A DNA stretch of 24,000 nt from Longimonas halophila (GTDB lineage Bacteria; Bacteroidota; Rhodothermia; Rhodothermales; Salinibacteraceae). The stretch's first letter is position 1. Each line of letters begins with the position of its first letter. The stretch lies in the NCBI RefSeq assembly GCF_002554705.1, contig NZ_PDEP01000008.1, positions 40,106 through 64,105 on the forward strand, read 5' to 3'. Of this stretch, positions 4,049 to 17,667 are shown piece after piece. The position numbers were made by a program, and so were the translations under genes. Below the pieces are notes generated by a model. That model ran no database searches, was not told the DNA's origin, and was given only the letters and a program-made list of their open reading frames with translations.

Positions 4049-4420
4049 AGGGCTGTGGGTGGGTGTGGGAAAAACGAACGAATGGAATATAACATGCTAA
4101 CTTTCGGGCGGGGTTGCAACCGCTTCCAGCGGGATTTCTGGGGAATTGAAGGGGGCACGTGGTGCTGGGGATGCGCCGTGCTTCGGGGGCATTACCTTCG
4201 GCCCCAGCCTATTGAGGCTGCTCGGAGCGTCCTGATACCGACAGCCGTGGGTAGAGGACGTACTCCTGGGTTGGCCAAAGTAAAAAATCAAGATAGGCTC
4301 TCAGGCTTTTGATGAGCGTACCTGCATCCCCGAGTGCTTGCGGAGGCAGAGCCTCCTGGTTGGGCGTCACAAGGCAGAGCCTTGCGACGAGTGGAGCGGG
4401 CGTTGGGAGAAGCTTTCGAG

Positions 4421-4633
4421 TCAAGTCATCCCGGACTTGATCCGGGATCCAGGAGATGCTGAGGACGCAAGCATTGTGCTGAACGTGGAGGAGATCCTTC
4501 GACTCTGCAGATGCTTGGCGCATCTGCGGCGCTCAGGATGACATCATGGTGGTGGGGAGGTACAGTATTGAAAGCAAGCCCCCAACCCGCTCCCCTGGAG
4601 AGGGGAGCTGTCGCGCAAGCGACTGAGGGGGGG
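4421..4633 (+). repeat. Composite hairpin-repeat element, copy A (module 1, module 2, module 3)
   Basis: Carries TCATCCCGGACTTGATCCGGGATCC, then GGAGATCCTTCG..GCTCAGGATGACATC, then the GCTCCCCTGGAGAGGGGAGC-TGTCGCGCAAGCGAC twin hairpin. The first 125 nt differ at 4 positions from 10721-10845. Confidence 0.9.
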
Positions 4634-4751
4634 ACGAGCGCCCACAGCCAGCATTTGCACGTTGCAAACAAAGATGCAGAGCTACGTTGCGATGACAGGC
4701 GATATGCGTCTGTACAATGTAGAATAGAGACAAAACAACAGAAACAAACCA

Positions 4752-5132
4752 ATGACTCGTTTTCCCTACGACCGGAATCTGCGTCCGTTGGCTCGGGCAC
4801 TCCGGAAAAACATGACGAAGAGCGAGAGACGTCTGTGGACACATCTGCGACGGAAACAGCGTGGCTACACCTTCAACCAGCAGTTTATCATTGGGCGTTA
4901 CATCGTGGATTTCTATGCGCGTCAGCTGCGTCTGGCGATTGAGGTGGATGGCGTTACGCATGACTATGAACAGGGCGATGGCTCTGACGCGGAACGACAG
5001 CGTGCACTGGAGGCGCTTGGGATCACTATGCTCCGATTTTCTTCAACGCGCATCTTTAAAGATTTGGAGCAGGTGCTGTATGAGATTGATGCTTGCATTG
5101 ATGGCTGTGAGCGTAAAAGAAGAAGTCAGTGA
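4752..5132 (+). CDS. DUF559 endonuclease-domain protein (Vsr-like PD-(D/E)xK fold), divergent paralog
   Basis: 126-aa ORF with the typical DUF559 pattern: LRKNMTKSERRLWTHLR..., ..YIVDFY.., ..LAIEVDG..H, ..ERQRALEALG..MLRF. Confidence 0.85.
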   Translation: MTRFPYDRNLRPLARALRKNMTKSERRLWTHLRRKQRGYTFNQQFIIGRYIVDFYARQLRLAIEVDGVTHDYEQGDGSDAERQRALEALGITMLRFSSTRIFKDLEQVLYEIDACIDGCERKRRSQ

Positions 5133-5163
5133 CTGTAGTGATTTTGTGCTGTGTGTACCAAAC

Positions 5164-5269
5164 ATCCCCCTTAATCCCCCTTCAGCGAAGGGGGAGACAA
5201 GTGGAAGGGCACGGCTTCAAGCTGCTCCCCTGGAGAGGGAAGCTGTCGCATTAGCGACTGAGGGGTGGA
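5164..5269 (+). repeat. Hairpin modules 3' of DUF559 copy 1 (A-like hairpin TCCCCCTTCAGCGAAGGGGGA plus a module 3 twin hairpin)
   Basis: Direct sequence similarity to the module A hairpins at 13010, 13603 and 17470, and to the module 3 copies. Confidence 0.8.
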
Positions 5270-5621
5270 TCTAAAGCAGCATTTCATGTGGAGGGGTCCC
5301 ATGTGGAGGGGCCTCGGCCCGTGAGCCGCCTGCTTCTGCCAGGGAGGAAGCGATGGTCGTAGAGCGCATGCCGTGCCGATGGTGTAGGAGACCTTTCGAC
5401 TCCTACCGACGGCTGTCGGTATGCGCTCAAGGTGACAAAAAGGGGAAAGGGAAGCATGTAAACCCATGGAATGCCTCCGGCGATCATTGAAGCCCGCTAA
5501 ACAGATACGCGGGGAGAAGGACAGGATGAGGGGCCTATTCCGTTCGTTCATGGCGCGTATCCTCGCAAATACATTTTTCGGTAGTCGCTAACACTGAAGT
5601 GATTGGCGTTGTCAGAGGGAC

Positions 5622-5669
5622 GAATGGATCCCGGATCAGCGGCGCCAAGAGCGCCTTGTCCGGTATGAC
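5622..5669 (-). repeat. Expanded module 1 hairpin, inverted orientation
   Basis: GAATGGATCCCGGATCAGCGGCGCCAAGAGCGCCTTGTCCGGTATGAC is close to the reverse complement of 15276-15323. Confidence 0.8.
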
Positions 5670-5880
5670 TGCTTGGGGGGCATCACTTGCGATCTAACAG
5701 CTACCCATTTTTCCTATACATGCCTCGCACGCACTCGTAGCCCTTTCTGTCGCGTGACGCGTTCGCTCAGTGGCTCGGACAGATGGAGCGTGGTGAGCAT
5801 GCGGGAACGGCGTCGAGATTTCTCCCTCCGACAGGGGGTGGGTGTCAGACAGTAGTCGGGAGTTAGGATGACGCTGAAGA

Positions 5881-6044
5881 GTGAGGTCTTGTGCCGAGTG
5901 TGTGGGAGATCCTTCGATGCGGCACCGGCTGTTGCCGCTGCCTTGCTCAGGATGACATCGTGATGGGAGGTACAGTATTGAACGCACGGCCTCAACCCGC
6001 TCCCCTGGAGAGGGGAACTGTCGCGTAAGCGACTGAGGGGTGGA
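5881..6044 (+). repeat. Composite hairpin-repeat element (module 2 plus module 3, no module 1)
   Basis: Carries GGGAGATCCTTCG..GCTCAGGATGACATC, then GGAGGTACAGTATTGAA (shared with copy A), then the twin hairpin. Confidence 0.85.
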
Positions 6045-6246
6045 ATCGGCTACCGCCGCCGCTGAAGATGAGGCGGTGTGCGAAACAAGCGAGCCGATGG
6101 CGCGCCCCGAATCGAATTCGCGGTACAGGAACGCCCTCTGTGTAACATCCACGTGTCATTCATAGCACAGCCTACGCATCCGTCCATATCTTTCATATAT
6201 TTTAGCGTTACACACAGGCCCCTCCACAGACCCGCTGCAACACATC

Positions 6247-8906: not shown

Positions 8907-9530
8907 ACTGGAGCCAACGGTCCCCCGTTGGCGCGGCGTCGCGGCCCGAGACGCGTGAACTCGCCCGGGACGTCCGCTACGCTCCCAGTCCCGGGCTACT
9001 GTCGGCGTTCCGTGTCGGAGAAATCAGTAGCGGGGGGGGCGTCCCGCGCACGACGAGGAAGGCCGAGGACGCGAGCGGTGACGACAGTGGTCGGCAGGAC
9101 ACACGCCGGGAACGTCGCTGTGCTCCAGTCCCCGGCTACTACCTTAGGTATCAAGTCCCTTCTCCCGGGGGGAGAAGGACAGGATGAGGGGAATCCCACC
9201 CAGCAAATGGTGCTCACCTTGTGGCAAGGTACAACAGGCATGACCCGTCCCATCTCCCTACGCTCGCCGCAAGGCGCAACCAGCATGACTTACGGGTCTC
9301 CTCTTTGCCTTATGACGCTCCCGTTGAGGGGCTCCGTCCCGTCTGAGCTGTTGAGGATTGTAAGTAGATCCAGGTGGGGCCTCGTGCTAAGCCCGTAGGA
9401 GATCCTTCGGCGCCGCACCGGCTGTCGCCGCTGCTCTGCTCAGGATGACATCATGGTGGTGGGGGATGTGGGGGAAGGCGTAAACCACAAATCGCTCCTC
9501 TGGAGAAGGGAACTGTCGCGAACGCGACGG
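8907..9530 (+). repeat. Hairpin-module array, colinear paralog of 14614-15106
   Basis: Module order: ACTGGAGCCAACGGTCCCCCGTTGG, module 4 (8962-9077), a second CCGGGAACGTC..CCCCGGCTACT unit, GGGGAGAAGGACAGGATGAGGGG, CAAGGCGCAACCAGCATGAC, AGGGGCTCCGTCCCGT, module 2, then degenerate module 3. Confidence 0.85.
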
Positions 9531-9608
9531 ACGCGTGCACGCCTGCAACAAAAAGGTGGAGCACACACAGGGAGTGCTCACCATACGAACGAATAGGCTT
9601 TGGCAGAC

Positions 9609-9632
9609 GTACCATTTCCGTAAACATGGTAC
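9609..9632 (+). promoter_or_regulatory. Inverted repeat GTACCAT-N10-ATGGTAC 22 nt upstream of the DUF433 start codon (candidate operator)
   Basis: Seen directly in the sequence. The position is typical of autoregulated toxin-antitoxin operators. The function is inferred only. Confidence 0.3.
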
Positions 9633-9653
9633 TCCACACGACCCAGACACCCC

Positions 9654-9902
9654 ATGGCTACCATTGCCCATCGCATAGAAGTTGATCCTGAGGTGCATCA
9701 CGGCAAGCCCGTCATTGCAGGCACCCGGGTTCCTGTTCACATGGTGCTTGGCCTCTTGGGAGAAGGGGTCTCTATCAGCGAGATCATCAACGAGTACTAC
9801 GACCACATCACACGTGAGGATGTCTTAGCCTGCATCCGGTACGCCCATACCGTTGTGCAAGAGGAAGAGGTCTATGCCACATCAAAGCCCGCCAGAAAGT
9901 GA
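9654..9902 (+). CDS. DUF433 domain protein (putative antitoxin)
   Basis: 82-aa ORF with the DUF433 pattern: I.VDPEV.HGKPVIAGTRVPV..VL..L..G.S..EI...Y..IT.EDV.A...YA. Confidence 0.85.
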   Translation: MATIAHRIEVDPEVHHGKPVIAGTRVPVHMVLGLLGEGVSISEIINEYYDHITREDVLACIRYAHTVVQEEEVYATSKPARK

Positions 9903-10278
9903 GGAATCGAACCAGGAACCGGTGTTTCTTGCGGATGAATGCACATTTACGCAGACCGTTCGAATGATGCGAGCAGCAGGATGCACGGTACATCGTGTTC
10001 AAGATCTCGGTATGGCGGGCGCACCGGATGCCGAGGTCTACCAGACGGCCTTAGGTAAAGAAGCTGTTCTGGTGACGACCGATCGTGGGTTCGGCGATGT
10101 CCGCTCGTATCCTCCCTCATCCCATCACGGCATCATCGTACTCAACGTCTCTCCTGATCCAGGGCAAGTCCGCGCTGTGCATCGCACGTTAACGATGATG
10201 CTCCAAACGGAGACCTCGTTCGCCGGAACGCTCTTCATCGTCGATGGAAAGAAGTACAGGAAACGCAAGCAGCCCTAA
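9874..10278 (+). CDS. DUF5615 family PIN-like nuclease (putative toxin partner of DUF433)
   Basis: Pattern FLADE....V..MR.AG..V..V.DLGM.GA.D.EVY..A....AVLVTTDRGFGD. The start is ambiguous: ATG 9853, ATG 9874 or GTG 9922. All of them overlap or abut the DUF433 gene. Confidence 0.8.
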   Translation: MPHQSPPESEESNQEPVFLADECTFTQTVRMMRAAGCTVHRVQDLGMAGAPDAEVYQTALGKEAVLVTTDRGFGDVRSYPPSSHHGIIVLNVSPDPGQVRAVHRTLTMMLQTETSFAGTLFIVDGKKYRKRKQP

Positions 10279-10280
10279 AG

Positions 10281-10564
10281 CGGTCGGCACAAAGCACTCG
10301 GCTATGGAAAGCGCCCCCCCAATCAAGTCATCCCGGACTTGATCCGGGATCCAGAAGGTGCTGAGGTCGCAGGCATTGTGCTGAGCGTGTGGGAGATCCT
10401 TCCCCCGACAGTAGTCGGGGCGACGGCGGTCGGACTTTTCGTCTCCGTGGCGCATCTGCGCCGCTCAGGATGACATCGGGGTGGGGGGAGGTTCAGAGGG
10501 GAAGGTGCCCTCCAACCCGCTTCCCTGGAGAGGGAAGCTGTCGCGCCAGCGACTGAAGGGTGGA
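10281..10564 (+). repeat. Composite hairpin-repeat element, copy B (leader, module 1, long-form module 2, module 3)
   Basis: Colinear with 15433-15668, except that the module 1 hairpin is present here and absent there. Confidence 0.9.
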
Positions 10565-10573
10565 TGTGCATGT

Positions 10574-10695
10574 GACGCCCGGGACGTCCGCTACGCTCCC
10601 AGTCCCGGGCTACTGTGGGCTTTCTGTGTCGGAGAAATCAGTAGCGCGGGACTGGCACGTCCCGCGCATGACGAGGAAGGGCGAGGACGCGAGCG
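10574..10695 (+). repeat. Module 4 (about 120-nt triple-hairpin module)
   Basis: GACGCCCGGGACGTCCGCTACGCTCCCAGTCCCGGGCTACTG...CAGTAGCGCGGGACTGGCACGTCCCGCGC...GAGGACGCGAGCG. It is nearly the same as 8962-9077. Confidence 0.9.
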
Positions 10696-10720
10696 AGCCC
10701 TGGCTACGGAAGCACCCTCA

Positions 10721-10925
10721 TCAAGTCATCCCGGACTTGATCCGGGATCCAGGAGATGCTGAGGTCGCAGGCATTGTGCTGAGCGTGGAGGAGATCCTTC
10801 GACTCTGCAGATGCTTGGCGCATCTGCGCCGCTCAGGATGACATCGGGGTGGGGGGGGCGAAGGTGTAAACCCCAACCCGCTTCCCTGGAGAGGGAAGCT
10901 GTCGCGCCAGCGACTGAGGGGTGGA
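10721..10925 (+). repeat. Composite hairpin-repeat element, copy C
   Basis: The same module order as copy A (4421-4633), with 4 differences in the first 125 nt. Confidence 0.9.
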
Positions 10926-11178
10926 TAAAGCTGCCGGAGACGCAACCGACCTTCGAAAGCACTCGGCACAACTCCCCCACCTAAGAGAATCGCCCACCTT
11001 CCCCCTAACCGTCCATCCCTCCACCCATCCATCCCTCCACCCCTGAACCCCGCATCCACACGCAATTCAACGAAACCGCAACGCATCCGTCTGATATATG
11101 ATGCGGCATACGTTGTGCGGTGCATTACACCGTACACAACCACTTCTACTGACCTGCACTCACGCCCGCTCCCACTTT

Positions 11179-12978: not shown

Positions 12979-12988
12979 ACTAACAAAC

Positions 12989-13154
12989 CAACCCCCTCTG
13001 CCTGTCGGCATCTCCCCCTTGACTAAGGGGGAGAGTCTTAAAGTGTATGGTTATTCGGAGCTTATGAGAGCTGCACACTAACGCAACGAACCTCCAAACT
13101 CCCCTCCTACCGGCGCCAGCCGGAAAGGAGGGGTGCCCGAAGGGCGGGGTGGTC
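12989..13154 (+). repeat. Module A' plus module B (left direct repeat flanking DUF559 copy 2)
   Basis: CAACCCCCTCTGCCTGTCGG..CTCCCCCTTGACTAAGGGGGAG..GTGTATGGTTATTCGGAGCTTATG..CCAAACTCCCCTCCTACCGGCGCCAGCCGGAAAGGAGGGG..GGGGTGGTC. It is colinear with 13553-13718. Confidence 0.9.
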
Positions 13155-13188
13155 CCGTGCACCAGCCAAACAAATTGGTCTTGAGCCT

Positions 13189-13545
13189 ATGCGATTACAC
13201 AACCGTAAATCACTGAAGCAACGCCGCAAAGAGCTTCGCAACAGCGCAACACCTGCAGAGGCCCAGTTGTGGAACGCATTGAAGAAACGACAGCTTGCCG
13301 GACGCAAGTTCAGACGACAGCATAGCATCGGACCATACATCGTAGATTTCTACTGTCCAGATGAGCGTCTTGCGATCGAACTGGATGGCGCCTCGCACGA
13401 TGGTCCACTCCGTAGCGAATATGATGCAGAGCGACAGGCGTACTTGGAAGCAAAAGACATTCGTGTCATTCGTTTTGAGAACAAGCAGGTGTTTGAGGAT
13501 CCAGACGGGGTGCTGGCGTACATCGAGAAGCAGTTTCGTGAGTGA
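13189..13545 (+). CDS. DUF559 endonuclease-domain protein (Vsr-like PD-(D/E)xK fold)
   Basis: 118-aa ORF with RKELRNSATPAEAQLWNALK...FRRQHSIGPYIVDFYC...LAIELDG.SH....YDAERQAYLEAKDIRVIRF. About 91% identical (107/118 by eye) to the 17056-17412 product. Confidence 0.9.
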   Translation: MRLHNRKSLKQRRKELRNSATPAEAQLWNALKKRQLAGRKFRRQHSIGPYIVDFYCPDERLAIELDGASHDGPLRSEYDAERQAYLEAKDIRVIRFENKQVFEDPDGVLAYIEKQFRE

Positions 13546-13552
13546 TAGGGAT

Positions 13553-13718
13553 CCAACCCCCTCTGCCTGTCGGGCTTCGCCGAAGGCGTGATCCTGTGGA
13601 CATCTCCCCCTTGGCTAAGGGGGAGAGTTTCGAGGTGTATGTTCATTCGGAGCTTATGGGAACTGAACGCCAAGGCGGCGATCTACCAAACTCCCTTCCT
13701 ACCGGTGTCAGCCGGAAA
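13553..13718 (+). repeat. Module A plus truncated module B (right direct repeat flanking DUF559 copy 2)
   Basis: The same order as 12989-13154, with an extra 28-nt sub-module GCTTCGCCGAAGGCGTGATCCTGTGGA. Module B breaks off after CCGGAAAG. Confidence 0.9.
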
Positions 13719-13795
13719 GATCGCTTCACCCAGCTTCTCCGCGATGACAGGCAGTGCTCGGTTGTTGCTGTGCGGGTCTGGTGTCGGCTCATGAG

Positions 13796-14005
13796 TCAGA
13801 ACGATCCCGGTGTTTTTTTGATGGCCTGCATGACATCACTAATAGAGGCGTCCTGCAGGCGCTCGCGCCGCTCAGCAGTATAATCTCCATCTCCCGTCGT
13901 AAATTGGTGGATAAACCGAGCCGTGTCCGACGGGCCCAATTCACGCGTCAAAACCCGGATGGCTTCTTCATTGATCTGATTCAGTGGTTTGGTGTTAACT
14001 TTCAT
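13796..14005 (-). CDS. Small hypothetical protein (69 aa), possible partner of the adjacent PIN gene
   Basis: ORF MKVNTKPLNQINEEAIRVLTRELG...DYTAERRERLQDASISDVMQAIKK lies in a lower-GC segment on the same strand as the PIN gene and just downstream of it. The family was not firmly recognised. Confidence 0.55.
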   Translation of the reverse strand: MKVNTKPLNQINEEAIRVLTRELGPSDTARFIHQFTTGDGDYTAERRERLQDASISDVMQAIKKTPGSF

Positions 14006-14168
14006 GGTGATACCACCCTGTGGATTATTAGATTGGTTGTGCGTTGTTGTGCGCAGGAGATGTACCCGTTGCGCTCAATGCGTTGCGTAATCCTCGACCC
14101 ATTCTACGGGAGTGAGCACCCGAGTGTCTTGGGTCTTAGAACCTGTTTTGATATGCCGTTAGAGGCGG

Positions 14169-14522
14169 CTAAGGGCCAATCGTAGTGACGCGAGCCGGAC
14201 CATGCACGGCTGCTGCCAGGTGCACGGCATCAACAGCTCCAATTCCCAGCTGTGAGTACTCCCGTGCCTTCTTTTCGACGGATGCTGTAACTTCTATAGT
14301 GTCTGTGGCAAGGGAAAGTACGTCATATGCAAACGCACGGCGTCTGGGATGTGGATTGTTCTCAGTTTCAACAAGCAGTATCTCACTGGAGAGAAGTTCT
14401 ATCTCACCGTTCTCGACGTGTTCAATAATTGCAAGAACAGCCTCCGATTCCAGCGCAATACGAAGCTGGGTCTGGTCATCGAAGGGACGCTGGATAGCAC
14501 ACGTGTCAAGGTAGATCGTCAT
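14169..14522 (-). CDS. PIN-domain (VapC-like) nuclease, apparently C-terminally disrupted
   Basis: N-terminal IYLDTCAI, then ESEAVL and VDAVHLAAA motifs. The ORF stops at ..RVTTIGP*, just where the last conserved acidic motif (TTDD-like) is expected. A different frame continues with a plausible PIN C-terminus down to 14075. Confidence 0.7.
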
Positions 14523-14613
14523 GCCTTGTAAGGTAGCTCTTCAGTAAAGAAGAGAAGATACTTAATTTGGTAGTGGATAGACCTTAAGTGATAGCCCTCT
14601 GATAAAAACGTTG

Positions 14614-15106
14614 ACTGGGGCGAACGGTCCTCCGTTCGTCCGCGCCGGAGACGTCCGCGCCAGTCGGCGCTCCCAGTCTCCGGCTACTGTCATGTTTCCT
14701 ACATCACTTAGCATTGAACCGCTACCCTTAATTTATGTCGTGGGTGTTTACAAAAGCGATTCAATTCAGGTTCTCGTATCCATGACCCGCTCGTCGCAAG
14801 GCACAACCAGCATGACCTGCGGCCCCTCCGCCTTGTGACGGTGCCCTTTAGGGGCTCCGCCCCGTGCATATTGTCGGGGATGCAGAGAAGACTTAGCATA
14901 CGCAGGAGTGTCGACGGCCGAAGGAGAGAGGGGGGATGCCGCACGTGCAGGGACGGCGTGTAGGAGATCCTTCGGCGCTGCACCGGCTGTCGCCGTTGCT
15001 CTGCTCAGGATGACATCATGGTGATGGGGAGGTTCGGAGGAGAAGGCACAACCCCCAACGGCTCCTCTGGGGAGGGGAGCTGTCGCGCAAGCGACTGAGA
15101 GGTGGG
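14614..15106 (+). repeat. Hairpin-module array, colinear paralog of 8907-9530
   Basis: ACTGGGGCGAACGGTCCTCCGTTCG, GGAGACGTCC..CTCCCAGTCTCCGGCTACTGTC, CAAGGCACAACCAGCATGAC, AGGGGCTCCGCCCCGT, module 2 (14963-15017), then module 3 (15061-15095). Confidence 0.85.
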
Positions 15107-15275
15107 CACGTCCCGCACGTGACGAGGAGCGTTGGAAATGCAAGCGAGATTCGGAAGTTTGCGGCAGGGTAGACGCCTGGATCCTGGATCTCCGTTCGCA
15201 AGCTCACTGCGTCCAGGGTGACACCCGAGTGGGGGCATTGAGTATAACATAAAGTTCAGCACCACGTACCAATGT

Positions 15276-15323
15276 GTCATCCCGGACAAGGTGCCCCTGG
15301 CACCGCTGATCCGGGATCCATTC
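15276..15323 (+). repeat. Expanded module 1 hairpin (TCCCGGA-[nested hairpin GGTGCCCCTGGCACC]-TCCGGGA)
   Basis: GTCATCCCGGACAAGGTGCCCCTGGCACCGCTGATCCGGGATCCATTC. An inverted copy lies at 5622-5669. Confidence 0.8.
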
Positions 15324-15432
15324 CCTGGCTAAGGTTGCTTTGCTTACGCTCGTCGCAAGGCACAATCAGCATGACCTATGGCCCCTCTGCCCCGTCCAGA
15401 TACCGCCGGGGATGCAAGCGGTACCGACGACA

Positions 15433-15776
15433 GTGGTCGGCACAGGTTACCCGGCTATGGAGGCGAGTGAAGCGTCGTGCTGAGCGTGTGGGAGATCCTT
15501 CCCCCCGACAGGAGTCTGGGGCGACGGCGGTCGGACTTTTCATCTCTGTGATGCATCTGCGGCGCTCAGGATAACATCATGGTGGGGGGCAGGTTCGGAC
15601 AGGAAGGCACAACCCCCAACCCGCTCCCCTGGAGAGGGGAGCGGTCGCGTCAGCGACTGAGGGGTGGGTGCGCATGCGACGCCCGAGACGTCCTTCCGAC
15701 CGCTGTCGGAATACCCGTCTCAGGCTAACTGTCCCTCAAACGGATATATCAGTAGCGCGGGACCCTCACGCCCACG
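15433..15776 (+). repeat. Composite array (leader, long-form module 2, module 3, degenerate module 4), colinear with 10281-10695
   Basis: Shared blocks: GTGGTCGGCACA..CGGCTATGGA.., GTGCTGAGCGTGTGGGAGATCCTTCCCCCCGACAG..GGCGACGGCGGTCGGACTTTTC..GCATCTGCGGCGCTCAGGATAACATC, the twin hairpin, then GCGCATGCGACGCCCGAGACGTCC. Confidence 0.85.
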
Positions 15777-16914: not shown

Positions 16915-16998
16915 TCCCTTCGGGCTTCGCTGAAGGCATGATTCTCTGGATGTCTCCCCCTTGGAAAAGGGGGAGAAACCCGAAGGGAGAGGGGGTTT
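16915..16998 (+). repeat. Module A variant (left flank of DUF559 copy 3)
   Basis: TCCCTTCGGGCTTCGCTGAAGGCATGATTCTCTGGATGTCTCCCCCTTGGAAAAGGGGGAGAAACCC.. is colinear with 17427-17495. Confidence 0.85.
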
Positions 16999-17055
16999 GA
17001 TCTAATGAGCGGTGATTAAAGCATCCATACCAAAAAAACACGATTGGGGGTGCGC

Positions 17056-17412
17056 ATGAAGTTACACAACCGAAAATCACTGAAGCAACGCCGCAAAGAG
17101 CTCCGCAACAATGCCACACCCGCTGAAGTCCAGTTGTGGAGTGCGCTAAAAAAGAGACAGCTCGCCGGACGCAAGTTCAGACGCCAGCATAGCATTGGGC
17201 CATACATCGTGGATTTCTACTGTCCAGGTGAGCGTCTTGCCGTTGAGTTAGATGGTGCCTCGCACGACGACCCGCTTCGTAGCGAATATGACGCAGAGCG
17301 ACAGACATATTTAGAGGCAAAAGACATTCGTGTCATTCGTTTTGAGAACAAGCAGGTGTTTGAGGATCCAGACGGGGTATTGACATACATTAAAAAGCAG
17401 TTTGATGAGTAA
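17056..17412 (+). CDS. DUF559 endonuclease-domain protein (Vsr-like PD-(D/E)xK fold)
   Basis: 118 aa from ATG 17056, about 91% identical to the 13189-13545 product. The ORF-track start at 17044 is a TTG 4 codons upstream. Confidence 0.9.
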   Translation: MKLHNRKSLKQRRKELRNNATPAEVQLWSALKKRQLAGRKFRRQHSIGPYIVDFYCPGERLAVELDGASHDDPLRSEYDAERQTYLEAKDIRVIRFENKQVFEDPDGVLTYIKKQFDE

Positions 17413-17418
17413 CGTGAA

Positions 17419-17621
17419 CAACCCCCTCTGCCTTTCGGGCTTCGCCGAAGGCGTGATCCTGTGGACATCTCCCCCTTGGCTAAGGGGGAGAGTTTTGCGG
17501 TGTAGGTTACTCCTAAATCATTGAAAACCCAACACCAACGCGACGAACCTCCAAACTCCCCCTCTTACCGGCGATAGCCGGAAAGGAGGGGTGCTCCGAC
17601 AACTGTCGGGGCGGGGTGGTC
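17419..17621 (+). repeat. Module A plus module B (right flank of DUF559 copy 3)
   Basis: CAACCCCCTCTGCCTTTCGGGCTTCGCCGAAGGCGTGATCCTGTGGACATCTCCCCCTTGGCTAAGGGGGAGAG...CCAAACTCCCCCTCTTACCGGCGATAGCCGGAAAGGAGGGGTGCTCCGACAACTGTCGGGGCGGGGTGGTC. Confidence 0.9.
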
Positions 17622-17667
17622 TCAACTTTACGTTGCACACTGATCTTCTCCATACACAATACACTTC

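Follow-up and report, generated by a model that had tools for sequence, protein, structure and literature searches.

The 24,000-nucleotide (nt) stretch of Longimonas halophila DNA analyzed in this work (contig NZ_PDEP01000008.1, positions 40,106 to 64,105), which we will refer to as the window, contains three genes for proteins of the DUF559 family (marked #1, #2, and #3 in Table 1), all of which match the Pfam DUF559 profile. The main subject here is gene #2, which an earlier note, made from the sequence alone, had described as a DUF559 gene coding for 118 amino acids (aa) and enclosed by colinear repeats of two hairpin modules, A and B. The gene itself was confirmed by the Pfam analysis, in which residues 8–115 of the protein align with positions 2–107 of the 109 positions of the profile. 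The only Pfam families recognized in this protein were DUF559 and the related MTES_1575 family, and no HUH/Y1 transposase was detected. The motif E64-x-D66-G-x2-H70-D71 is intact (sequence IELDGASHD), and in a set of 25 sequences including E. coli YcjD, the residues E64, D66, G67, H70, D79, R82, and R95 are invariant and D53 is nearly so. The nearest solved structure is PDB 3HRL (E = 3e-17 alone and 6e-33 with a profile), and the closest characterized relative by sequence is I-Bth0305I, the family profile matching PDB 3R3P with an E value of 4e-4; Vsr itself was out of reach of the sequence search at E ≤ 1. Gene #2 is intergenic and not within another gene, Rfam finds no intron, and no methylase partner was seen among the annotated open reading frames (ORFs) of the window. 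Phages and plasmids rarely carry this DUF559 subfamily, a relative being present in only 2 of 50,697 phage records.

The flanks of gene #2 (12988–13157 and 13553–13719) are colinear, as the earlier note had stated. The first 21 bases of the two copies (12988–13008 and 13553–13573) are identical (21/21), and the segments 13001–13127 and 13593–13719 show 82% identity in a BLAST match of 127 nt with a score of 112 bits, compared with a 99th percentile of 35 bits for random-position flanks in 84 loci. A single indel separates the two copies, in agreement with the clean sub-module indel reported before, but its length is 27 alignment columns instead of 28 nt, and it corresponds to the extra hairpin GCTTCGCCGAAGGC... 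that is present in the right copy. The ATG of gene #2 is located 31 nt 3' of the forward unit in the left flank, and the reverse unit in the right flank begins 7 nt past its stop codon. The right copy ends after GGAAAG at 13719, and its last unit retains the pyrimidine arm and the loop hairpin and is without the purine arm, the mini-hairpin, and the mirror tail, which bears out the truncation of module B that had been noted. The hairpin TCTCCCCCTTGNNNAAGGGGGAGA occurs in four copies in the window, where none would be expected by chance. When folded as single-stranded DNA, the left flank string (12985–13160) gave z = -5.0 and the string 3' of gene #3 (17415–17625) gave z = -4.4; these values are for hairpin folding only. 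The promoter and terminator scans of the flanks returned nothing useful. On the 3' side of the truncated unit, a PIN-domain gene (14169–14522) and a 69-aa ORF (13796–14005) are both found on the minus strand within 13796–14522, and the truncation at 13719 may be an edge of the insertion of these genes.

The covariance model R1, which was built from units of other phyla, matches both module A and module B, on opposite strands. Hence, these are not two kinds of module, as previously thought, but a single type of unit placed in opposite directions, which makes the A-B string an inverted doublet. The unit at 12987–13038 comprises the leader CAACCCCCTCTGCC of the earlier note (also given as CAACCCCC) together with hairpin A, and in minus-strand order it consists of CTCCCCCTT-loop-AAGGGGGAG, the mini-hairpin GCC-GACA-GGC, and the mirror tail GAGGGGGTT. 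The unit at 13096–13157 is made up of module B and an extension, viz. CCCCTCC-(CCGGC..GCCGG loop hairpin)-GGAGGGG-T-GCCCGAAGGGC-GGGGTGGT. In general, a unit has a pyrimidine arm that is complementary to a purine arm, followed by a T, a mini-hairpin whose sequence is free, and a tail. The arms in the window are CCCCTCC..GGAGGGG or CTCCCCCTT..AAGGGGGAG, the mini-hairpin is GCCC-GAA-GGGC, and the tail is GGGGTGG or GAGGGGGTT. Read directly from the sequence, the tail repeats the purine arm in mirror order, an A of the arm being answered by A or T, so that in the window GGAGGGG is paired with GGGGTGG, AAGGGGGAG with GAGGGGGTT, and AGGGGAG with GAGGGGT. The third strand of a purine-motif triplex requires G·G:C, T·A:T, and A·A:T. 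As the tail mirrors the purine arm, a single strand of the unit could fold either into a hairpin or into an intrastrand triplex.

The two helices of the unit are conserved in different ways. Among 136 distinct model-aligned units, an alignment that was fitted to R1 and whose members were selected for their resemblance to it, the sequence of the long helix is kept (131–136 of 136 identical at eight of nine pairs), whereas the mini-hairpin shows compensatory changes at all six pairs, with 175 cells changed on both sides. The covariation observed in the mini-hairpin was reached by none of 500 shuffles, and it collapsed in slid controls. Independently of the model, hairpins with an asymmetric purine arm were followed within 32 nt by a mirror copy of this arm 611 times, as compared to 124 times by a direct copy. 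Different variants of the arm and the tail covary (GGAGGGG with GGGGTGG, GAGAGGG with GGGTGAG, AAGGGGG with GGGGGTT, and GGAGGAG with GAGGTGG), and the pairing of AAGGGGG with GGGGGTT was found in 22 occurrences across loci. Since RNA does not form triplexes of the purine motif (Holder et al., 2015, PMC4666352), the mirror-tail rule is indicative of DNA, and this DNA-specific rule and the conservation of structure only in the mini-hairpin together suggest that folded single-stranded DNA may be the active form of the unit. Rfam contains no family for this unit, and the matches to sot0042 and to microRNAs in this database were far below threshold. Some other candidates were also set aside. The repeats of type III toxin-antitoxin systems differ in architecture, being direct repeats that stand in tandem before an RNase; ribosome-binding mimicry by an AAGGAGG arm is contradicted by units that are in both orientations, far from starts, and present in the Bacteroidota too; and a fixed pairing of one unit type with each protein clade is contradicted by locus L060 from Patescibacteria, where a #2-like protein is found with a D1-like unit.

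Table 1. DUF559 genes and repeat units of the window, with the strand of each feature and the evidence for it.
Feature	Positions	Strand	Evidence and remarks
DUF559 gene #1 with its own units	4584-5273	+	gene 4752-5132; 40% aa identity (distant paralogue); Pfam E = 9.5e-30
Unit of gene #1	4584-4636	+	R1 11.9 bits; D1/D2 repeat family
Unit of gene #1	5157-5200	-	R1 16.6 bits; D1/D2 repeat family
Unit of gene #1	5219-5273	+	R1 11.7 bits; D1/D2 repeat family
Reverse triplex-type hairpin unit	12987-13038	-	R1 25.2 bits, E = 6.6e-6
Spacer between the inverted units of the left doublet (GTGTATGGTTATTCGGAGCTTATG...)	13039-13095	+	colinear with 13631-13685 and with the spacers of L081 and L082
Forward triplex-type unit	13096-13157	+	R1 43 bits, E = 2e-11
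DUF559 gene #2	13189-13545	+	118 aa; Vsr-fold PD-(D/E)xK nuclease by sequence; Pfam PF04480 E = 5.8e-34
Reverse unit with extra 27-nt hairpin in second loop	13552-13630	-	R1 21.5 bits; flank alignment
Truncated forward unit	13686-13719	+	homology stops at 13719/13720
Forward unit 5' of DUF559 gene #3	16949-17000	+	R1 22.1 bits; conserved in orthologous locus L081 (746-799)
DUF559 gene #3	17056-17412	+	paralogue of #2 (85% nt, 91% aa identity); between rmlB and rmlA
Full doublet 3' of gene #3	17417-17624	+	reverse unit ~17417-17495, spacer, forward unit 17553-17624 (R1 30.1 bits); homologous to 13552-13719

That the association of the DUF559 genes with these units is specific and not a chance adjacency, as had been proposed, is strongly supported by results that go far beyond the window. 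A genome scan identified 80 DUF559 loci that are 45–64% identical to the query and come from many phyla, and more than ten phyla are represented among the loci in which the link was tested. In a motif-free test of the flanks, direct repeats exceeded the 99th percentile of the controls in 29 of 79 loci and inverted repeats in 40 of 79. The same unit was seen in the Armatimonadota, Gammaproteobacteria, Bacteroidota, and Ignavibacteriota. Based upon 84 loci, the unit density is 2–4 per kb at up to 100 nt from DUF559, compared with 0.02–0.09 per kb beyond 1 kb, and when one locus per synteny group was considered, it was 1.75 per kb within 300 nt and 0.024 per kb beyond 1 kb, a 73-fold difference. 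A strict unit was present within 300 nt of DUF559 in 30 of the 63 synteny groups. An equal density of the repeats around every gene, which the earlier note had named as speaking against a link, was not observed; units were found in 61 of 157 DUF559-adjacent intergenic regions (39%) versus 22 of 633 others (3.5%; odds ratio 17.6, p = 7e-30). In a motif-blind analysis from which the clade of the window was excluded, the 8-mers CCCCTCCT and GGGGTGGT were present in the flanks of 52 and 41 of the 80 loci, respectively, versus 3.7 and 2.5 expected. Loci that were independently chosen from a plasmid collection, viz. those from Sphingomonas (yqeY-DUF559-dnaG), Deinococcus, and Synechocystis, have the same flanks; a BLAST search of plasmids with the consensus unit gave no match. 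One survey found DUF559 proteins to be enriched among predicted inversion targets, which fits with the presence of inverted repeats.

DUF559 is the sole gene common to these loci, which are syntenic within genera, and the gene is mostly present in a single copy. In the commonest layout, observed in 15 of the 25 loci where units were detected on both sides, a forward unit precedes the gene and a reverse unit follows it. Facing pairs of units show a bimodal distribution, with a gap of either 384–486 nt that holds the gene (15 cases) or 16–110 nt without it (26 cases), and they resemble the full-length and miniature forms of one element. A comparison of the short-doublet spacers with the gene-containing elements at L003 gave no clear insertion signature. 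In many genomes, there are also units and doublets that have no DUF559 gene nearby. Many of the homologues end in ...TTP because the reading frame runs into ACCACCCC, and such C-terminal tails (...TTP and ...SPSP) are annotation artefacts; in the Sphingomonas locus (L094, 2818–3354), the annotated start of the coding sequence has similarly been extended upstream across the repeats, giving a protein of 178 aa. In the plasmid of Synechocystis sp. B12 (L092, 2328–4852), DUF559 and two type II units are located between a 175-aa DUF1156 fragment and a 434-aa 'hypothetical protein', and this cassette may have split one gene.

The pairing of DUF559 with repeats is probably also present in E. coli. 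The BoxC repeats of this species are the same as the PIT elements (Hoyne and Maher, 2000) and TM_ECO (Holder et al., 2015, PMC4666352), for which the pattern CCCTCNCCC-N3-6-GGGNGAGGG-N3-GGGNGAGGG was described (PMC4666352). The K-12 protein YcjD is 38% identical to the window protein, and the end of the ycjD gene is inside a reverse unit. A copy fitting the TM_ECO pattern is found in the ycjD-fabI spacer, about 150 nt 3' of ycjD, and it is presumably in this region (envM/fabI) that BoxC was first described. This ycjD-adjacent BoxC copy is represented at a median of 19 places per genome in 5,426 genomes, and at 21 in K-12. The ycjD gene is single-copy and present in 3,378 of the 5,426 genomes, and 38% of E. 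coli genomes are without it. In a systematic sample of 59 chromosomes, the number of BoxC places ranged from 15 to 32 (median 22) in the 37 with ycjD and from 2 to 23 (median 5) in the 22 without it; five or fewer places were seen in 12 of the 22 ycjD-negative versus none of the 37 ycjD-positive chromosomes (Mann–Whitney p = 5e-9). An empty site for ycjD was not obtained, the best matches in the ycjD-negative genomes being other BoxC loci (zntA-tusA and gcvP-ygfF). On the K-12 spacer's minus strand (L085, ~5340–5365 and 5455–5480), the 3' end of ycjD (GGAGACGGTGCTGGAGAATATTC...) is present a second time downstream of the gene, between the two units, as if a further copy or a rearrangement had left a remnant there.

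The other DUF559 genes of the window and its clade provide information on the history of these loci. The same architecture had been claimed for all three genes. Although flanking units are indeed present at each of them, gene #3 has a single upstream unit and the units of gene #1 belong to a different, related family. The order rmlB-DUF559-rmlA is kept in the loci L081, L084, and L088–L091, with a DUF559 identity that goes from 89% down to 69%, and the number of units varies among these loci, L084 possessing three tandem doublets. As this arrangement is conserved in the relatives, gene #3 is an old resident of this clade that has been inherited vertically, and not a newly moved cassette. In a Longimonas metagenome-assembled genome (MAG), a DUF559 gene with a doublet on either side follows uvrB. 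In contrast to gene #3, gene #2 is lineage-specific, and it is missing at its site in relatives whose ABC transporters are 97% and 88% identical; the empty sites for which the earlier note had proposed a comparison of related strains were not recovered there, as the locus holds other repeats in both of them. In the 97% relative, a D14/D17 repeat stands straight after the stop codon of the ABC transporter, where the window has the doublet and DUF559 gene #2; this repeat family (CGCCCGGGACGTCC...GGGACTGGCACGTCCCGCGC...GAGGACGCGAGCG) is also found at 8962–9077 and 10576–10695 of the window and at 1966–2130 of L087. In the 88% relative (L086, 4259–5398), an IS110-family transposase is located between the met-zincin gene and the ABC transporter, where the window has the repeat island 9400–11097.

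The DUF559 genes are under purifying selection, with ratios of nonsynonymous to synonymous divergence (dN/dS) of 0.05–0.28, and of 0.05–0.12 for gene #2. Despite a dS of 0.93 between genes #2 and #3, the modules that flank them are 82–95% identical. When locus #3 was compared with its orthologue L081, the identity was 93–100% on the 5' side of the gene and over its first two thirds, but a stretch of about 180 nt covering the 3' end of gene #3 and the adjacent unit is nearer to the in-genome paralogue #2, and beyond this the sequence is again orthologue-like. This switch in similarity identifies a gene-conversion tract across the junction of gene and unit. A metagenome scan with the module-B pattern revealed one true locus (L084) and one chance match inside a coding region (L083), and nothing was found in a viral scan. 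In two loci from Gammaproteobacteria MAGs (L002 and L003), homologues of rmlB and rmlA are present within 10 kb downstream of DUF559, as in the Salinibacteraceae, which may be due to chance or to joint transfer.

Apart from these loci, the window contains unusually large non-coding islands (4050–6246, 9400–11097, and 14523–15663) that are packed with several repeat families. At least 10 more families are found in them (D4, D6, D8, D9, D10, D12, D14, D16, D17, and D19), e.g., GGAGATCCTTCG...GCTCAGGATGACATC. An inverted repeat of 55 nt (5622–5676 and 15269–15323) has arms that are 85% complementary and 9.6 kb apart, and a low-complexity C/A-rich tract (CCCACCTAAG...CCATCCCTCCACCCATCCATCCCTCCACCCC) is present at 10960–11060, just 5' of the ABC transporter gene.

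A palindrome and a tail that are conserved require a reader that is conserved as well, and since DUF559 is the only conserved neighbour of the units, the nuclease and the units would be functional partners. In the reading that we consider the most likely, with about an even chance of being correct, this region represents a widespread element of two parts, a small nuclease gene of the Vsr fold (EDxHD-type) and its cognate bracketing repeat, which are partners in the manner of RAYT and REPIN. The comparison with RAYT and the repetitive extragenic palindromic (REP) sequences had already been drawn in the earlier note, and it fits the architecture, which includes both inverted flanking repeats and dispersed doublets. 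We infer from the sequences that the nuclease would bind the units, cleave them, and bring about their mobilization or copying. The DUF559 protein, probably as a dimer, would recognize the unit either as a palindromic duplex or as a folded single strand that is exposed in replication, and it would nick or cut at or beside it. The recombinational repair of such breaks would then copy units, and occasionally also the gene, between sites, and in this way a nuclease gene that is mostly single-copy and vertically inherited would remain surrounded by many units, some of them in inverted doublets. The repair of breaks at the units would explain the conversion at the junction, the instability of the loci, and the dependence of the repeat number on the gene.

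A number of observations weigh against this proposal. About half of the independent loci are without a strict unit. Within the clade of the window, the strong units are almost confined to the neighbourhoods of DUF559, so that no dispersed non-autonomous population is evident there except for the weakly matching D1/D2 family. A nuclease of 118 aa cannot be a transposase by itself, because it has no evident strand-transfer activity. The contrast between the ycjD-positive and ycjD-negative chromosomes is confounded by phylogeny, and some ycjD-negative lineages, e.g., O157:H7, retain 15–23 copies of BoxC. As R1 does not match the BoxC of E. coli, the link to this species rests upon the shared grammar, the published pattern, and the type II units beside DUF559 (L063 and Synechocystis). 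Holder et al. did not observe any stable triplex in vivo (PMC4666352). Further, a DUF433+DUF5615 toxin-antitoxin pair in the window (9654–10278) is bracketed by D2-type units (9485–9537 and 10510–10562), and the units could thus be general boundaries of small cassettes. This pair (DUF433 with a DUF5615/PIN-like protein) is also found at L082 (3303–3927), L088 (7709–8353), and L092 (5692–6284), being located within a few kb of DUF559 genes in the Longimonas MAG, another contig from Salinibacteraceae, and the Synechocystis plasmid.

Several other explanations of the association were considered. The gene could be a pure homing cassette, with a free-standing DUF559 endonuclease cutting an 'empty' facing pair of units (GGGGTGGT..ACCACCCC) and its gene being copied into the break and thereby flanked by unit halves, while the units are independent repeats, either of the host or of another element, that derive no benefit from the nuclease. 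The kinship in sequence to the EDxHD homing endonuclease I-Bth0305I, the bimodal facing pairs that look like occupied and empty sites, the end of the gene within a few bases of ACCACCCC, the co-conversion over the gene/unit junction, the three copies in 24 kb together with the lack of gene #2 at its site in the relatives, and the DUF1156 gene that has seemingly been split by the cassette are all in its favor. However, unlike short-lived homing genes, this one is present in a single copy, keeps its synteny within genera, and experiences strong purifying selection, and its family is rare in phages. Additionally, no clean empty site was recovered, and the tendency of E. coli without ycjD to have few BoxC copies is not predicted if the repeats are independent. 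For these reasons we consider homing alone to be an unlikely account. A coincidence at hot spots, where intergenic islands that are permissive and prone to recombination accumulate repeats and, independently of these, small selfish genes such as DUF559 and toxin-antitoxin pairs, so that their adjacency has no specific meaning, would be consistent with the large repeat-filled islands of the window, with the bracketing of the toxin-antitoxin pair by units, with the other repeats that are found 3' of the ABC transporter in the relatives, and with the proneness of the TM-bearing loci to rearrangement in E. coli (PMC4666352). The enrichment near DUF559 persists, however, when other intergenic regions are the reference (odds ratio 17.6); it is seen in compact genomes of many phyla with the same unit sequence, and the geometry of the gene/unit junction is conserved, all of which makes such a coincidence improbable.

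It can also be envisaged that DUF559 is a maintenance nuclease of the host that clears hairpin or triplex blocks at replication forks, and that it came to adjoin the repeats or was kept only where they are abundant. The Vsr-like repair fold, the vertical inheritance and purifying selection, and the correlation of the presence of ycjD with the number of BoxC copies accord with such a role, as does the blocking of DNA polymerase by PIT elements in vitro (PMC4666352). The tight bracketing of the gene in many phyla and the running of its stop codon into the unit are left unexplained by it, and 38% of E. coli genomes can dispense with ycjD; we therefore give little credence to maintenance as the whole explanation. 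Lastly, the units could be cis elements only, belonging to the transcript or the locus of the gene (e.g., as an insulator, an mRNA stabilizer, or an autoregulatory operator), which travel with the gene and are not a substrate of the nuclease. The units begin 6–10 nt past stop codons and are on the same strand as their neighbours in the window, the palindrome would suit a dimeric repressor, and the near confinement of the units to DUF559 in this clade would be expected. A role limited to cis is nevertheless very improbable, as units and doublets are present far from DUF559 in many genomes, E. coli genomes carry about 20 of them alongside a single such gene, PIT elements exhibited no promoter or terminator activity in earlier work (PMC4666352), and the mirror-tail rule points to DNA rather than RNA.

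Knowledge of the repeats called BoxC, PIT, or TM dates back to the 1990s; hundreds of genomes conserve them, and they have been linked to rearrangements. To our knowledge, no function or mobility factor is known for them, and we know of no role for DUF559 (including YcjD), which is among the commonest small nuclease families. If the proposed element is real, these two long-standing puzzles would explain each other. Somewhat more tentatively, and with a little less than even confidence, we suggest that DUF559/YcjD is the long-missing trans-acting partner of the BoxC/PIT/TM repeats across bacteria including K-12. This would constitute a second system of repeats and a domesticated nuclease, independent of RAYT and REPIN, in which the enzyme reads a triplex- or hairpin-forming unit, i.e., an unusual DNA structure, and in which its activity accounts for the spread of the repeats and the instability of the loci. 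It would also explain why DUF559 genes are often at assembly breaks and why their annotated ends often run into a repeat, and the partnership is directly testable in E. coli K-12. The earlier note was not aware of any description of this association. No paper linking the nuclease and the repeats was found in the literature on DUF559, ycjD, and REPIN/RAYT/Vsr, and in the main text of PMC4666352 there is no mention of ycjD, Vsr, or endonuclease; the repeat class itself is, however, a known one (BoxC/PIT/TM, PMC4666352). Thus, both the repeats and the protein family were known separately, and what appear to be new are the DUF559-repeat partnership, the variant of the unit with hairpin loops, and its spread across phyla.

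Of the known systems, the BoxC/PIT/TM repeats share with the units described here three blocks, viz. a pyrimidine arm, a purine arm, and a mirrored purine arm in which A may stay A or become T. Like the units, they are intergenic, present in both orientations, frequently arranged in inverted doublets, and tied to variable loci, and the copy beside E. coli ycjD fits the published pattern exactly. The TM motif is represented by 3,610 copies in 262 proteobacterial genomes and by 23 in K-12, where five pairs are inverted doublets, and a single strand of TM_ECO forms a triplex in vitro (PMC4666352). The units of the window differ in having stems of 7–9 nt, loops that are themselves hairpins, and 11–39 nt in the second loop, and they do not conform to the TM_ECO pattern; the published TM search would have missed them, because its loops were limited to 1–6 nt (PMC4666352). 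The published work also reports no mobility and no partner gene, and with regard to the TM loci Holder et al. wrote that "we never found ... remnants of transposases or integrases" (PMC4666352).

Among the nucleases, I-Bth0305I (PDB 3R3P, PMC3239194) is an EDxHD homing endonuclease that reads a 14-bp pseudopalindrome as a homodimer. It has the same Vsr-like catalytic domain with the E-x-D...H-D motif, and a homodimer acting on a pseudopalindrome would suit a palindromic unit. However, I-Bth0305I is multidomain and is encoded by a group I intron within the recA gene of a phage, whereas the window protein is a single domain of 118 aa that is chromosomal, intergenic, and rare in phages. Judged from these features, the element falls outside the intron-borne EDxHD homing family while being related to it by descent. 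Vsr and the Neisseria 'endonuclease-like protein' of PDB 3HRL (DUF559) belong to the same fold superfamily, but Vsr acts with a cytosine methylase on T:G mismatches. The attC cassettes of integrons provide a descriptive comparison, since they too are small, promoterless-looking genes bracketed by direct imperfect-hairpin sites that act as folded single-stranded DNA. The grammar of the unit is unrelated to that of the attC core sites, and no integrase, attI, or cassette array was seen among the ORFs and parts of the window that were scanned, no dedicated search for these having been made.

The closest parallel in organization is provided by RAYT with REP and REPIN sequences. In both cases, a nuclease-type gene that is usually single-copy and vertically inherited is flanked by inverted hairpin repeats, the repeat is also found as dispersed singlets and inverted doublets, and there are fewer repeats where the gene is missing. 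The enzyme here is a PD-(D/E)xK nuclease of the Vsr fold, in contrast to the HUH/Y1 transposase (similar to TnpA of IS200/IS605) of RAYT; the consensus of the unit is without the GTAG/CGTC tag of the REPs and has a third, mirror block; and its sequence is nearly constant across phyla, whereas REPs are lineage-specific. Because the enzyme differs and the GTAG tag is not present, the element does not belong to the RAYT-REP family. By analogy, it would nevertheless work most like RAYT-REP, while its repeats are, by their grammar, of the BoxC/PIT/TM kind.

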